Part shown: piece after piece, positions 3,349-17,674 of the stretch | Numbering within the stretch: position 1 is the first letter of the stretch | Layout of the letters: each line of letters opens with the position of its first letter | From: a phage | DNA: 64,000 bases | NCBI GenBank assembly: GCA_012439925.1 | Contig: GCA_012439925.1_4519.1 | Strand: one strand, 5' to 3' | Position numbers and translations under genes: made by a program | Notes under the pieces: model-generated | The model's database searches: none | Seen by the model: the letters and a program-made list of their open reading frames with translations, nothing else | Told to the model about the DNA's origin: nothing

Positions 3349-3774
3349 ATGGCTTTTAAAGGTTTTGAAGTTGGTAAGAAATATCATATTATCAAAGGTC
3401 AAGAAGATAATTTCTTGAGAATTCTTAATACGACTGGTAAACGTCTTAATACTAATCTGCATACTACTTTATTGTCCAAAGATTTTATTGTGGAAGAGAT
3501 GATTGGTTACGGTGTTTCGGTTATTGCTGTAGAAGCCGTAGGCGATTATGGCCGAACTATTCATAGTATGCAAGGTGATATTCTGCTTTATGGTGCAGAA
3601 TTTAAATTCTTTGAAGAAGTTCAGGAACCAGATACAGCTGTCGATTTCAAAAAAGGCTCTATAGAATTTGTTGATGGTTCGGTGATCGTATCAGGCGATG
3701 TGGTCATTACAGTTAAAAGTGAACAAGGGCGTTTGGCTGCAATTGATGCACTTCAGAAAATTAAATTTAAATAA
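3349..3774 (+). CDS. hypothetical protein (occupies the goF-like position upstream of gene 39)
   Basis: 141-aa ORF; assignment is by position and size only. Confidence 0.45.
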   Translation: MAFKGFEVGKKYHIIKGQEDNFLRILNTTGKRLNTNLHTTLLSKDFIVEEMIGYGVSVIAVEAVGDYGRTIHSMQGDILLYGAEFKFFEEVQEPDTAVDFKKGSIEFVDGSVIVSGDVVITVKSEQGRLAAIDALQKIKFK

Positions 3775-12734: not shown

Positions 12735-14060
12735 ATGCAATTGAATTCTCGTAATCTAAAAAGTATTATTGATAACGAAGCCTTAGCATATGCGATGTAC
12801 ACCGTTGAAAACCGTGCAATCCCAAACATGATTGATGGATTTAAGCCGGTTCAACGTTTTGTGGTTCATCGTGCATTAGATTTGGCTCGTGGTAATAAAG
12901 AAAAATTTCATAAACTTGCGTCAATTGCAGGCGGTGTTGCAGATTTAGGTTATCACCATGGTGAATCTTCTGCACAAGATGCAGGTGCATTGATGGCTAA
13001 CACATGGAACAACAACTATCCACTGTTAGATGGCCAAGGCAACTTTGGTTCTAGAACAGTCCAAAAAGCTGCAGCATCTCGTTATATTTTTGCTCGTGTA
13101 AGTAAAAATTTCTATAACGTATATAAAGATACTGAATATGCTCCAGCTCATGAAGATAAAGAACACGTTCCACCAAAATTCTATCTTCCTATTATTCCGA
13201 CAGTTCTTTTGAATGGTGTATCTGGTATTGCAACCGGTTACGCAACAAATATTCTGCCTCATAGTTTTAAATCGGTAAAAAAGGCTGTATTACAAGCTCT
13301 TCAAGGTAAAAATGTCACTAAGCCAAAAGTTGAATTCCCGGAATTCCATGGTGAAGTACATGAAGTTGATGGGCGTTATGAGATTCACGGAACATATAAG
13401 TTCACATCTCGCACTCAAATGCAGATAACTGAAATCCCATATAAATTCGACCGTGAAACGTATGTGAGTAAGGTTCTTGACCCGTTGGAAGACAAAGGTC
13501 TAATCTCATGGGAAGATGATTGTGGTGAACACGGCTTTGGGTTTAAGGTGAAGTTCCGTAAAGAGTACTCGCTTCCTGATGATGAAGAGCTACGTCATGA
13601 AAAAATCATGAAAGATTTTAGTCTCATCGAACGTCGTTCACAAAACATCACAGTGATTAATGAAAAGGGTAAATTAGCAGTCTACGATAACGTAGTGGAC
13701 TTAATCAAAGATTTTGTTGAAGTCCGTAAGACTTACGTTCAGAAACGTATTGACAACAAAATCCTTGAATCTGAAAAAGCATTTAAACTGGCTTTTGCTA
13801 AGGCACACTTCATCAAAAAAGTTATCAACGGTGAAATCGTGATTCAGGGCAAGACTCGTAAAGCTTTGACTGAAGAGCTAGCACAAATCGAAATGTACAA
13901 AGAACATGTCGATAAACTGGTGGGTCTTAACATCTTCCATATCACTTCCGACGAAGCACGTAAACTAGCAGAAGAAGCTAAAGCTAAGAAAGAAGAAAAT
14001 GAGTATTGGAAGTCTACTGATGTTGTGACAGAGTACACTAAAGACTTGGGGGCACTTTGA
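12735..14060 (+). CDS. 52: DNA topoisomerase II medium subunit (GyrA-like breakage-reunion domain)
   Basis: 441 aa (T4 gp52 441 aa); GyrA-like N-terminal motifs; synteny ndd - 52 - motA. Confidence 0.9.
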   Translation: MQLNSRNLKSIIDNEALAYAMYTVENRAIPNMIDGFKPVQRFVVHRALDLARGNKEKFHKLASIAGGVADLGYHHGESSAQDAGALMANTWNNNYPLLDGQGNFGSRTVQKAAASRYIFARVSKNFYNVYKDTEYAPAHEDKEHVPPKFYLPIIPTVLLNGVSGIATGYATNILPHSFKSVKKAVLQALQGKNVTKPKVEFPEFHGEVHEVDGRYEIHGTYKFTSRTQMQITEIPYKFDRETYVSKVLDPLEDKGLISWEDDCGEHGFGFKVKFRKEYSLPDDEELRHEKIMKDFSLIERRSQNITVINEKGKLAVYDNVVDLIKDFVEVRKTYVQKRIDNKILESEKAFKLAFAKAHFIKKVINGEIVIQGKTRKALTEELAQIEMYKEHVDKLVGLNIFHITSDEARKLAEEAKAKKEENEYWKSTDVVTEYTKDLGAL

Positions 14061-14136
14061 GTGCCCTAGCCTTAGGATTTCTCGGTGCAATAGCTGCACT
14101 AGTGATTTGGCTGTATTGGTTGGACAAACATGATTA

Positions 14137-14158
14137 GGGAGCTTCGGCTCCCTTTTGT
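14137..14158 (+). terminator. intrinsic terminator after gene 52
   Basis: GGGAGCttcgGCTCCC followed by TTTT. Confidence 0.7.
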
Positions 14159-14179
14159 GCATTTTTTTCTCACAAAACA

Positions 14180-14208
14180 GTTTACATGTGCTTCAAACAT
14201 GATATTAT
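14180..14208 (+). promoter_or_regulatory. T4-type early promoter
   Basis: GTTTAC 14180-14185, 17-bp spacer, TATTAT 14203-14208; downstream TATAGACCTATCAAAACAA also occurs at 2495-2515. Confidence 0.55.
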
Positions 14209-14247
14209 AGACCTATCAAAACAAAACAGCCAAATTGGAGAAATAAA

Positions 14248-14880
14248 ATGTCTAAAGTTACTTACATCATCAAAGCTTCTGAAAACGCTCTGAATGAAAA
14301 AACTGCTGCAATAATGGTTTATATCATTAAGAACAACTTCACCACTGCTGCCAATGTCCGTGAAGCTCTGGAAGCAGAATACAGTGCATCAGTTGTTAAC
14401 TCTAACATTGGTGTATTGATTAAGAAAGGTTTAGTCGAAAAATCCGGTGATGGACTTGTAGCAACAGGCGAAGCAATGGATATTATCCAAAAAGCTGCAG
14501 ACCTCTTTGCCCAAGAAAATGCTCCAGAACTTCTTCAGAAACGTAACACCAGAAAAGCACGTGGAGTTACTCCTGAAATGCATGAATTAGCAAACTTTGT
14601 TTTTGAAAATATTAAAGATAAAGTTGAAGTTAAAGAAATTGGTGAAAACCGTAGTAACTTAGAAGTTCGATTCGCTAAACGAGTTCTAGGCATTCGCCAA
14701 ATTGAAATTCGACGAGATGGCGCTCTTAGAATCTTTGCATACAACATGTCAGAAACTGAATCAAAGCTGTTTACTTCTCTTGAAAATGATGTTAAGATTA
14801 AGATCGGTGGTAAATATACTTACATTGACTTCCCTAATGTGTCTAAAGAAATCATTACCCTTGTAACTAACGTACTGTGA
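14248..14880 (+). CDS. motA: middle transcription activator MotA
   Basis: 210 aa (T4 MotA 211 aa); N-terminal MSKVTYIIKAS...VVNSNIGVLIKKGLVEKSGDGL matches T4 MotA as recalled. Confidence 0.85.
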   Translation: MSKVTYIIKASENALNEKTAAIMVYIIKNNFTTAANVREALEAEYSASVVNSNIGVLIKKGLVEKSGDGLVATGEAMDIIQKAADLFAQENAPELLQKRNTRKARGVTPEMHELANFVFENIKDKVEVKEIGENRSNLEVRFAKRVLGIRQIEIRRDGALRIFAYNMSETESKLFTSLENDVKIKIGGKYTYIDFPNVSKEIITLVTNVL

Positions 14881-14890
14881 GGAATACATA

Positions 14891-15220
14891 ATGAATAAGC
14901 TGAATATTATTAACGAACTTCGTAAATGTGCAGAACCTACTCAGGAAGGATGGGATATTTGGTACCACGGGGCTTATTTAGGGACAATTGTAAAGATTAA
15001 AGCAGGCCAATATACGGTTATTCGTGAAAATAATGACGCGCCATTTGGCCTTCGTAAAAACTACATGGCAGCGATCAGTTCATTTGTTGATGCAGCTTAC
15101 GAAATCTATAAAGAAGATTATAAAGAATATCAGCAGTCACAACCGGTTATTCGTTCGATTGGTGTAAATAAACAAGCACAAAAATCTATTTGGCAACGTA
15201 TTAAGGAATGGTTTAAATGA
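14891..15220 (+). CDS. hypothetical protein
   Basis: 109-aa ORF, RBS GAGGAA. Confidence 0.5.
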
Positions 15221-15678
15221 AAACTTTTAAAGAACGTTTAGCTCTGTTAGATAAAGCTTTGTCGCGTGAGACTCCGGAAAGTCTGGCTGCTAAATTAGCT
15301 TCTTACGGTGGTGAATATACAGAACAAAATGTTTTAGACGAAGTTCCTGAAATCTGTTGGCAGACTCTGTATTGGGATGAAAACCAAAAGTATCAACGAC
15401 GAATTGTCTGCGCAGCCAACCGTTTTAAATTAAAAGATGGACGAACTCTTATTATTCCAGGTGCTCGTCATTATTCTAAAGATATGGCAGAAGTTTTAGA
15501 TGTAGTTAAACCTCAATTAGTTACTCAACAAGTTTGTGATGATGACCAAGGGTTTATTGACCAATATAGTAATTATTGGACACGTGAAGAAGCAATGATT
15601 ATTGCAACTTACGCTGGACAAGTACGTATTGAACGTGGTGGTAATGAAAAAGAACTTTACTCTGAGGACCTTTACTAA
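15217..15678 (+). CDS. hypothetical protein
   Basis: 153-aa ORF, start overlaps previous stop; no recognised motif. Confidence 0.5.
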
Positions 15679-15959
15679 TGAATCTTAAACAACTCCAGAT
15701 TGATGCTATTGAAGCCCACATTAATCATATCAAACGCCTGAATGTTATGATGGAAGAAAATTATGGTATGTATGCTAATCAGCCTGGTTGGGATGCTTTA
15801 GATCATCCTTATTTGGTTAATTTATGTAAAGGTGATACGTTAGCAATTATTCGTGATGGGTTAAAACCTTTCTTGCGCGACATGTATATTAAAATGAACG
15901 AAGAAATTATTAGCTCGTTGCAATATCAATTAAGGAAATTAGATGATGAGAATAATTGA
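15678..15959 (+). CDS. hypothetical protein
   Basis: 93-aa ORF, start overlaps previous stop (TAATG). Confidence 0.45.
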   Translation: MNLKQLQIDAIEAHINHIKRLNVMMEENYGMYANQPGWDALDHPYLVNLCKGDTLAIIRDGLKPFLRDMYIKMNEEIISSLQYQLRKLDDENN

Positions 15960-16170
15960 TTCTAAAGCAGATTATTTTAATTCTGTTAATGATAAGAATA
16001 AAGCTTTAATTCGCCACTTTATTACTGAGATGGGTTATACTGACTCTAAAGATTTGAAAGAACACATCATCGAATGTTCTGTGGCTAAAAAGTTTTCTTT
16101 TACCGATAAATGTTTAAATGAGGTTATAAATCATTATGAACAATCTTGTAGCAAAACACGATTTCAATAA
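15943..16170 (+). CDS. hypothetical small protein
   Basis: 75-aa ORF overlapping the previous stop. Confidence 0.4.
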   Translation: MMRIIDSKADYFNSVNDKNKALIRHFITEMGYTDSKDLKEHIIECSVAKKFSFTDKCLNEVINHYEQSCSKTRFQ

Positions 16171-16244
16171 GGCTTCTGTCCATAAGGACAAGAAGAAAGT
16201 AGAACTCCAATCTAAACGTAAACAAAAACACAAGGGTAAAGACT

Positions 16245-16532
16245 ATGTTTACTAAAATCAAAGAGAATCCTGCTACTGAACTGGTTATTCGCTGCGAAGA
16301 ACTTGTAGAGCTCTATCACGTCAACAAGAACGTATATCGTAGTGTTGTTGCAGATATGGCAGATGAAGTTTGTTCTCGAATTCCATTTAGTGTTGATTTT
16401 GATCGTACAGCACCGGGAGAAATCACTATCGTCTTTGGTTCTGACTATACTGAAGAACGGGCTCTTAATGCCCTAGAATATGAAATGTCATTCTTTGACA
16501 TACAGGACTACATTGATAGTTATAAGGAATGA
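16245..16532 (+). CDS. small acidic protein, possible Arn-like anti-restriction protein
   Basis: 95 aa with about 20 acidic versus 9 basic residues; lies between motA and asiA where T4 arn lies; sequence identity not verified. Confidence 0.3.
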   Translation: MFTKIKENPATELVIRCEELVELYHVNKNVYRSVVADMADEVCSRIPFSVDFDRTAPGEITIVFGSDYTEERALNALEYEMSFFDIQDYIDSYKE

Positions 16533-16533
16533 T

Positions 16534-16695
16534 ATGAGCCATAATCTGCAGAACGTAGTAGAGGCAGAACGTGAGCGTGAGGCTTTAGTCTATAATGAAC
16601 TATTAGCCACGTTCTTGGCCTTACACTCGTATGAACAGGAAGACTACACTGATTACGTTAAAAGTGTAGAAAAAGCTGTTTACAATCAACACTGA
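16534..16695 (+). CDS. hypothetical small protein (53 aa)
   Basis: Start MSHNLQ chosen downstream of the previous stop. Confidence 0.35.
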   Translation: MSHNLQNVVEAEREREALVYNELLATFLALHSYEQEDYTDYVKSVEKAVYNQH

Positions 16696-16741
16696 TAATG
16701 GTACTATACTCATATCAACAAAATGGAATGAATAAAACGTT

Positions 16742-17014
16742 ATGAATAAAGATATTGAAATTGTACGTGAAATTATTACGGTTGCTTCTATTTTGATTAA
16801 ATTCTCTAGGGAAGATATTGTTGAAGACCGAGCAAATTTCATCGGATTCTTGAATGAGATTGGAATTAAAAAAGATGGTCGGCAGCTAAATCAGAATTCG
16901 TTCAGAAAACTAATTACAAATTTAACTGCCGAAGAAAAGAAAACACTGATTAGTGAATTCAATGAAGGTTTTGAAAATATTTATCGCCATTTGACGATGT
17001 ATTCTAACAACTAA
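16742..17014 (+). CDS. asiA: anti-sigma-70 factor AsiA
   Basis: 90 aa, identical in length to T4 AsiA; REIITVASILIKFSREDIVE and EFNEGFE motifs match T4 AsiA as recalled. Confidence 0.85.
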   Translation: MNKDIEIVREIITVASILIKFSREDIVEDRANFIGFLNEIGIKKDGRQLNQNSFRKLITNLTAEEKKTLISEFNEGFENIYRHLTMYSNN

Positions 17015-17674
17015 TTATTTAGCCCGCCCTAATATCCTTGCTGCTTGGTTGCATATTGCAGCCAAGCGTTCTTCATTTAATACATCCGACCCCTTATACC
17101 AATACATAGAAACAGTTCCCGCATATATGTTATCCAAATTGAAGTAAGGACAACTATACATATACGCCAGTTCAGGAGTTTTTGATTTGGTAGGTAAGAA
17201 AGCAAAATCTGTTTTAGAAGTAAAGTGAAGTCCACTTAAATGGACCGAATATTCTGCTGTCGTTTTATCGACAGGAAATCCTCCCATAGATTTTTCAGTT
17301 ACTGTGCTAGGTAACTTACCTTCATACGCAATAAGGTCGACGAAATAATTTAGATTTTTAGGTCTGAAAGAATACACCGAACTAAAATCCGCCCTTGATG
17401 TGACGTGGACTATTTGTAGTTGTTCTAAAGCCGCAGATTCAAATCGTGTATTTCTTTCTTTTTGAATTACTTCTGTGTAAGTATCATATTTCGACCTCAC
17501 GTAATAATCCATAAAAATATTCCCTTTGTACCATATTAGTGCCATTAGGAACAAAAGAACTACAACAGCAACTCTTGAAATAAGAATATTTCCAGAGGCG
17601 TTATCTTTGAAAATGCGGTCTAGCAACCCAAATAAAATATCACTAGGCGAAAATGATACTTTTGGTGCTGCCAT
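17015..17674 (-). CDS. t: holin
   Basis: Start trimmed to MAAPKVSFSPSDILFG (T4 T begins MAAPRISF); 219 aa; single N-terminal transmembrane segment and large periplasmic domain; SD GGGAGG. Confidence 0.9.
   Translation of the reverse strand: MAAPKVSFSPSDILFGLLDRIFKDNASGNILISRVAVVVLLFLMALIWYKGNIFMDYYVRSKYDTYTEVIQKERNTRFESAALEQLQIVHVTSRADFSSVYSFRPKNLNYFVDLIAYEGKLPSTVTEKSMGGFPVDKTTAEYSVHLSGLHFTSKTDFAFLPTKSKTPELAYMYSCPYFNLDNIYAGTVSMYWYKGSDVLNEERLAAICNQAARILGRAK

Follow-up and report, generated by a model that had tools for sequence, protein, structure and literature searches.

Arn, a homodimer in which acidic side chains stand in for the backbone of DNA, is one of the few phage DNA mimics that have been characterised structurally, and McrBC, a type IV restriction enzyme, attacks hydroxymethylcytosine DNA that carries no glucose. 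According to the summary of Ho 2014 given in a review (PMC12707154), Arn of phage T4 inhibits McrBC and binds H-NS, blocking its binding to DNA. The protein has been proposed to fill the site at which host proteins bind DNA. T4 Arn also blocks the PUA-Cal-HAD defence in a manner that depends on residue N70, an ability that T2 Arn, which carries the N70S substitution, does not have (PMC12871103). The families of DNA mimics are mutually non-homologous (review PMC12707154). In T4 the gene order is 52 - motA - arn.4 - arn.3 - arn.2 - arn.1 - arn - asiA.1 - asiA - t - 38. The present analysis concerns the same locus in a 64,000-nucleotide stretch of phage DNA (contig GCA_012439925.1_4519.1 of assembly GCA_012439925.1), here called the window, and above all its open reading frame (ORF) 5, which spans 16245-16532 on the + strand between motA and asiA. 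The acidic product of ORF5 is probably the Arn of this phage, encoded within a T-even arn cassette and acting as a mimic of DNA.

The 2.9 kb around the cassette is 96-97% identical to CAU_ECP01, SHSML-52-1 and mar005P1, RB69-like T-even phages of the genus Mosigvirus, and by this identity the window is a Mosigvirus. Its gene order, gp52, motA, a series of small ORFs, asiA and then holin t and gp38 on the minus strand, matches that of T4. Judged by this order and by the families described below, the interval between motA and asiA is the standard T-even arn cassette, with seven small genes here rather than six. The first-pass annotation had listed six small ORFs, numbered ORF1 to ORF6 below; all are present at the coordinates it gave, but the start of the sixth was placed wrongly and a seventh gene was missed.

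ORF5 encodes 95 amino acids with a net charge of −11 (20 D and E, 9 K and R; isoelectric point (pI) 4.35), exactly the charge that had been estimated when the ORF was first noted, while T4 Arn has 92 amino acids, a net charge of −9 and a pI of 4.55. The protein belongs to phrog_8202 (E 8e-50) and is 91% identical to RB69ORF259c. Its relatives, RB69ORF259c included, bear only the label "hypothetical protein" among the matches listed of 179 phage records, and neither PHROGs nor the RB69 annotation assigns a function to the family, which is found in Mosigvirus and Dhakavirus. The link of phrog_8202 to Arn is an addition of the present analysis. The family is narrow, with 6 clusters at 90% identity, and bridging sequences were needed to make the link because direct tests of ORF5 against Arn, given below, were negative or marginal.

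A hidden Markov model (HMM) search of 1.84 billion representatives yielded two more small relatives of ORF5, P0007 and P0011. The latter bridges the two families, with 34% identity to ORF5 (E 4e-20) on one side and 33% identity over 90 amino acids to T4 Arn (E 7e-11) on the other. Its gene is closely followed by a 42-amino-acid ORF, asiA and holin t. A further link is provided by the JS10 protein encoded at the equivalent position. With the bridges included, the ORF5 family profile (A6) has T4 Arn (PDB 3WX4) as its sole PDB match, at E 7.4e-6 and with residues 7-91 aligned to residues 5-92, and hhalign of A6 with the Arn-family alignment gives a probability of 89.9% and E 1.7e-6. Four other hits of the HMM search were long repetitive proteins, set aside as compositional matches; the two whose sequences were read, P0010 and P0012, are internally repeated.

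The predicted structure leads to the same protein. The AlphaFold2 monomer model of ORF5 (predicted local distance difference test (pLDDT) 88, predicted template modelling score (pTM) 0.77) has 3WX4 as its top Foldseek match in the PDB, with template modelling (TM) scores of 0.75/0.73, a probability of 1.00 and 17% identity over 94 columns. The ranks that follow have TM scores of about 0.35, and the highest of any other match is 0.49. A five-sequence alignment retains an always-acidic position (E36 in T4) and a C-terminal ...(E/Q/H)DY. Furthermore, the gene occupies the same slot as T4 arn, after arn.1 and the DUF7230 gene and before asiA.1, in synteny with T4, RB69 and JS10. Since the sequence chain, the profile, the fold and the synteny agree, ORF5 is taken to be homologous to Arn, and on these sequence and model data the homology is well supported. 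The Arn-like identity that the first-pass annotation proposed for the acidic ORF is thereby upheld by the fold, the broadened profile, the profile-profile comparison and the position.

The two proteins are alike in slot, length, acidity, fold and the C-terminal acidic-DY, and unlike in their identity of about 17-24% and in an extra acidic C-terminal tail, DSYKE, to which relatives of ORF5 add QYEP or similar. The ORF5 allele itself ends in ...SYKE at 95 amino acids; RB69 and most relatives go on with QYE(S/P) to 99. No protein of the phage database exceeds 91.6% identity to this allele, even though the DNA on either side is for the most part 97-100% identical to CAU_ECP01. ORF5 also matched the PP7 coat protein (6n4v) weakly, with E values of 0.04 and 0.0015 and a per-domain E of about 9, but this match was rejected because it is gone with the broader profile and absent among the fold matches listed.

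Several observations weigh against ORF5 as a DNA-mimicking Mosigvirus Arn. ORF5 has no match to the Pfam family DM_Arn (PF22134, gathering score 26 bits) even at E up to 10; T4 Arn, the positive control, scores 186.7 bits and the bridge P0011 reaches 16 bits. A direct BLASTP comparison of ORF5 with T4 Arn gives only a marginal match (24% over 38 amino acids, E 0.004-0.011), and hhalign of the ORF5 family against Arn without the bridges gives a probability of only 7%. Neither phmmer of ORF5 nor the narrow family profile A1, both run against the PDB, found 3WX4. N70 of T4 Arn aligns with T69 of ORF5 in the hhalign alignment. The DNA mimicry, dimerisation and target of ORF5, whether McrBC, H-NS or another protein, are carried over from T4 Arn by analogy. 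As for expression, the promoter-like sites of the region, given below, are consensus matches only, their regional number is not above shuffle expectation, and no MotA-box (middle) promoter was found inside 14000-17100.

The insignificance of the direct pairwise similarity, together with the recurrence of small alpha/beta folds, would also fit a convergent origin, in which ORF5 resembles Arn as another small acidic alpha/beta protein and not by descent. This explanation, already disfavoured, is highly improbable. The transitive chain has significant E values, 3WX4 is the only PDB chain that the family profile retrieves, the two sequences align colinearly over their full length, their genes have identical synteny, and both proteins share the C-terminal ...(E/Q/H)DY.

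Homology to Arn suggests what ORF5 may do. With the place, size, acidity and fold of T4 Arn, ORF5 would be the Mosigvirus version of that protein, and it would act, as T4 Arn does, as a protein mimic of DNA. Ocr (T7 gp0.3) and ArdA are likewise small, strongly acidic, early-expressed blockers of DNA-binding defence enzymes, and by analogy ORF5 probably works alike. Neither Ocr nor ArdA appears among the ORF5 fold matches listed or in PDB sequence searches with ORF5 or the family profiles.

Given their extreme divergence, ORF5 and T4 Arn may prefer different targets. The threonine of ORF5 at the N70 position means that activity against PUA-Cal-HAD should not be assumed. A more specific form of this idea is that the Arn fold was kept but retargeted, as the outcome of an arms race, from McrBC to a different host factor, such as a PUA-domain system, a nucleoid protein or some other nuclease that depends on DNA modification. 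Such retargeting is a tentative possibility. It would fit the low identity to T4 Arn and the finding that a single substitution, that between T4 and T2, flips the specificity of Arn (PMC12871103), at the very position where ORF5 carries threonine.

The retargeting explanation also draws on the behaviour of the gene among close relatives, where no other gene of the cassette has diverged as far as ORF5, which indicates allele exchange at the locus. Its nucleotide identity to them is 88-89%, while most neighbouring genes are 97-100% identical to CAU_ECP01, and its synonymous substitution rate (dS) is 0.47-0.52 against 0-0.17 for the neighbours in CAU_ECP01. The raised divergence is mainly synonymous, however. 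The ratio of non-synonymous to synonymous substitution rates (dN/dS) is about 0.13, and the range of 0.12-0.14 within Mosigvirus denotes purifying selection. This argues for an older allele brought in by recombination, and the divergence of ORF5 points to allele replacement rather than to positive selection.

The surroundings of the gene raise the question of its main role. ORF5 has motA and asiA, two factors of transcription takeover, on either side, and the binding of T4 Arn to H-NS, in the summary of Ho 2014 cited above, would allow ORF5 to serve host takeover first of all, countering H-NS or other nucleoid proteins so as to alter transcription, and not anti-restriction. Such a main role is distinctly unlikely. 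It does not exclude anti-restriction, and the genetic evidence on T4 Arn, as PMC12707154 summarises it, is for an anti-McrBC function. In T2, moreover, an ArcZ-dependent defect is suppressed by deletion of mcrC (preprint 10.64898/2026.06.19.733364).

Recognising RB69ORF259c and phrog_8202 as Arn would extend the family to Mosigvirus and Dhakavirus, together with a metagenomic intermediate, and would explain the apparent lack of arn in RB69-like genomes. It also supplies natural Arn variants at about 20-35% identity for mapping the determinants of target specificity. A widespread mis-annotation is corrected at the same time, in which arn.1-arn.4 carry the name "anti-restriction nuclease" and the true Arn homologue passes as hypothetical. 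The advance is modest: what is new here is a divergent member of the Arn family and a set of annotation corrections, and the cassette is otherwise ordinary and well conserved.

The borders of the cassette are readily identified. To the left lie gp52 (12735-14060) and motA (14248-14880, + strand), whose product matches Pfam MotA_activ (E 2e-39) and MotCF (E 2e-8) and is 51% identical to T4 MotA. The right border is asiA (16742-17014, + strand), with Pfam AsiA at E 3e-33 and 75% identity to T4 AsiA. Between them, all six listed ORFs match PHROG families at E 5e-31 to 1e-72. Compared with T4 or JS10, their proportion of non-synonymous differences (pN) is 0.10-0.53 and that of synonymous differences (pS) 0.20-0.93, with dN/dS of 0.06-0.45 where dS is computable. 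Because non-synonymous changes are far rarer than synonymous ones and the family matches are strong, the six ORFs are genuine genes under purifying selection and not chance frames.

By these family matches ORFs 1-4 are ordinary members of the T4 Y16B/C/D/F families (Arn.1/.2/.3/.4), as the 39-amino-acid seventh ORF is of DUF7230. ORF1 (14891-15220, + strand) encodes the Arn.4 homologue, a basic protein of 109 amino acids (pI 9.2) that matches phrog_1594 over its full length (E 2e-52) and PF26821 (Phage_T4_Y16F). Its identity to T4 Arn.4 is 75% over the C-terminal 67 amino acids (BLASTP against T4 proteins, as for the identities that follow), its dN/dS is 0.14, and GAGG precedes its ATG. ORF3 (15678-15959, + strand; 93 amino acids) is the Arn.2 homologue, with matches to phrog_1844 (E 9e-42) and PF26819, 40% identity to T4 Arn.2 and a dN/dS of 0.11 against JS10. 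ORF4 (15943-16170, + strand; 75 amino acids) is the Arn.1 homologue, matching phrog_4452 over its full length (E 4e-40) and PF26827, with 74% identity to T4 Arn.1 over 42 amino acids.

The Pfam entries PF26821 (Y16F), PF26092 (Y16D), PF26819 (Y16C) and PF26827 (Y16B) were taken as precomputed hits from a newer Pfam release. The earlier statement that these ORFs contain no recognisable motifs therefore needs qualifying: the four families now exist, but they are families of function not known. Homology searches assigned a housekeeping function to none of the cassette ORFs; such an assignment had been named beforehand as speaking against an anti-defence role. Besides ORF5, the six cassette proteins are conserved and have no mechanism assignable from the present data. 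The functions of the arn.1-arn.4 products are stated to be unknown in the T2 preprint (10.64898/2026.06.19.733364), and the label "anti-restriction nuclease" that many GenBank records attach to these genes is propagated from the gene symbols and not from evidence.

A comparison of Arn.4 and Arn.1 with their T4 counterparts exposes a difference in annotation. T4 Arn.4 is annotated with 68 amino acids and T4 Arn.1 with 43, the last 43 only, whereas the full-length forms here have 109 and 75. The upstream in-frame sequence of T4 is nonetheless free of stops and homologous to the N-termini of the 75- and 109-amino-acid proteins of the window (15943-16030 and 14891-15016 of the window, compared with the reverse complement of 3603-3695 and 2542-2667 of the T4 stretch used). 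T4 has TTG where the arn.1 ATG stands here, and the ATG that starts arn.4 here is replaced in T4 by isoleucine codons (translated II, so ATT, ATC or ATA). On this comparison, arn.1 and arn.4 of T4 look under-annotated.

ORF6 (16534-16695, + strand) encodes the AsiA.1 homologue, an acidic protein of 53 amino acids (net −6) that belongs to phrog_5245 and is 32% identical to T4 AsiA.1 (E 1e-4). Its true start is almost certainly 16534 (MSHNLQ...), not 16480, because the phrog_5245 profile covers only residues 19-71 of the long form, relatives annotate or call a 53-amino-acid product, AAGGA lies upstream of 16534 with no such motif before 16480, and T4 AsiA.1 begins MSHNLE.

ORF2 (15217-15678, + strand) encodes the Arn.3 homologue, a protein of 153 amino acids with 83% identity to T4 Arn.3 over 153 amino acids; the match to PF26092 (T4_Y16D) was found on an identical 153-amino-acid product. 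An alignment of 46 relatives shows the polar residues R61, R84, H85, Q111, D115, Y120, R123 and Q135 to be invariant, along with A66, A67, G112, F113 and A126, and a C-terminal L[FY]SEDLY to be near-invariant. The model of Arn.3 has a pLDDT of 87.6, and no solved structural relative was found for it. Searching the viral structure library showed the same fold in phages of Erwinia, Serratia, Klebsiella, Pseudomonas, Acinetobacter and Agrobacterium, and also inside three proteins named "large polyvalent protein associated domain-containing". This recurrence in polyvalent proteins is a hint, no more, that Arn.3 may have a role in conflict, and it is the sole sign in the present data that the neighbours of ORF5 may be anti-defence candidates.

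The invariant polar set of Arn.3 is enzyme-like. Together with the recurrence of the fold in polyvalent proteins, it enters a wider reading in which the whole cassette is a multi-component counter-defence module, with an ORF5 retargeted to a defence other than McrBC, Arn.3 as a second anti-defence effector and the DUF7230 protein as a takeover factor that binds nucleic acid or the ribosome. That reading is rather unlikely, and the more limited one of ORF5 as the Mosigvirus Arn is retained here.

The arn.3 gene also contains a patch of T4-like sequence. Over 300 base pairs (15348-15647, + strand) its nucleotide identity is 97.6% to T4 and 80% to RB69, while the adjoining arn.4 has the opposite pattern, with 99.4% to RB69 and 77% to T4. 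The patch indicates recent recombination between genera, and on these nucleotide comparisons the arn cassette is a recombination mosaic.

The seventh gene (16136-16255, + strand) overlaps the 3' end of arn.1 by 35 nucleotides and the start of ORF5 by 11. Its product, MNNLVAKHDFNKASVHKDKKKVELQSKRKQKHKGKDYVY, is a lysine-rich, basic protein of 39 amino acids (pI about 10) that scores 47.4 bits with Pfam DUF7230 (PF23876), whose cut-off is 27; the scores of six homologues in other genera range from 35.7 to 49.9 bits. It belongs to phrog_1359 (E 3e-21), and tblastn found the ORF in 1,214 phage records. The ORF is intact in the seven genera examined: Mosigvirus, Tequatrovirus, Dhakavirus, Jiaodavirus, Winklervirus, Bragavirus and Slopekvirus. 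With a pS of 0.78 and a pN of 0.13 against T4, it is, by these proportions, under strong purifying selection. The T4 copy is intact at NC_000866 161580-161699 (−) and is not annotated there. Together with the longer Arn.1 and Arn.4, the DUF7230 gene suggests that the T4 reference annotation of the interval needs revision.

NCBIfam has no model for the 39-amino-acid protein, and its family profile (A5) found no match in the PDB up to E 10, though chains of the ribosome-rescue factor ArfA are present in that database. A resemblance of the peptide to ArfA is unsupported (hhalign E 0.16 over 8 columns). JS10 carries an extra 116-amino-acid ORF between arn.4 and arn.3 (1295-1645 of the compared JS10 stretch), has no arn.1 and keeps the DUF7230 gene; the composition of the cassette therefore varies between genera.

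The expression signals of the region centre on the sequence upstream of motA. A sigma-70/T4-early-type promoter-like site lies at 14181-14208 (+ strand; TTTACA-16-TATTAT with TG before the −10 element, 10/12 consensus matches) and is a candidate start of a motA-arn-asiA transcription unit. A second promoter-like site, also a consensus match, lies just upstream of asiA at 16679-16707 (+ strand; TTTACA-17-TACTAT with TG). Within the interval, the terminator scan picked out a single + strand hairpin of terminator-like form, a weak one at 15790-15809 inside arn.2, and nothing else that would separate the cassette genes. The cassette appears to be co-transcribed with motA, since a promoter-like site lies upstream, the frames are packed or overlapping and no clear terminator separates them. 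The motA gene and the arn cassette would then be one co-transcribed unit. The T2 genes from arn.4 to arn are carried on a single abundant transcript (preprint 10.64898/2026.06.19.733364). A Shine-Dalgarno-like motif stands before every ORF start of the cassette, though it is weak for the 39-amino-acid ORF.

The same preprint describes a pairing site for the small RNA ArcZ in T2 arn.2, at +285 to +294, with the sequence CCAGGGAAAT. The site, whose sequence is also present in T4, coincides with roughly codons 2-5 of the extended arn.1 frame. The homologous position of the window (15940-15960, at the 3' end of arn.2 and the start of arn.1) reads GATGAGAATA, which is not complementary to ArcZ, and the ArcZ duplex energy over the whole region is no better than that of shuffled sequences. 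Moreover, the 70-nucleotide "intergenic region" of T2 and T4 that contains an RNase E site is coding sequence here. Because the site is altered and the region is coding, the control by ArcZ and RNase E reported in the preprint may not apply to this phage. Re-annotation of T4 likewise affects how the ArcZ/RNase E regulation reported for the "intergenic region" upstream of arn.1 is to be read.

A scan of 13900-17200 against Rfam gave nothing credible. The stretch between gene 52 and the motA promoter-like site contains a hairpin rich in G+C (14136-14153; AGGGAGC-TTCG-GCTCCCT) with a run of T after it, which is probably the terminator of the upstream unit. Although the terminator scan placed it on the minus strand, its stem is palindromic.

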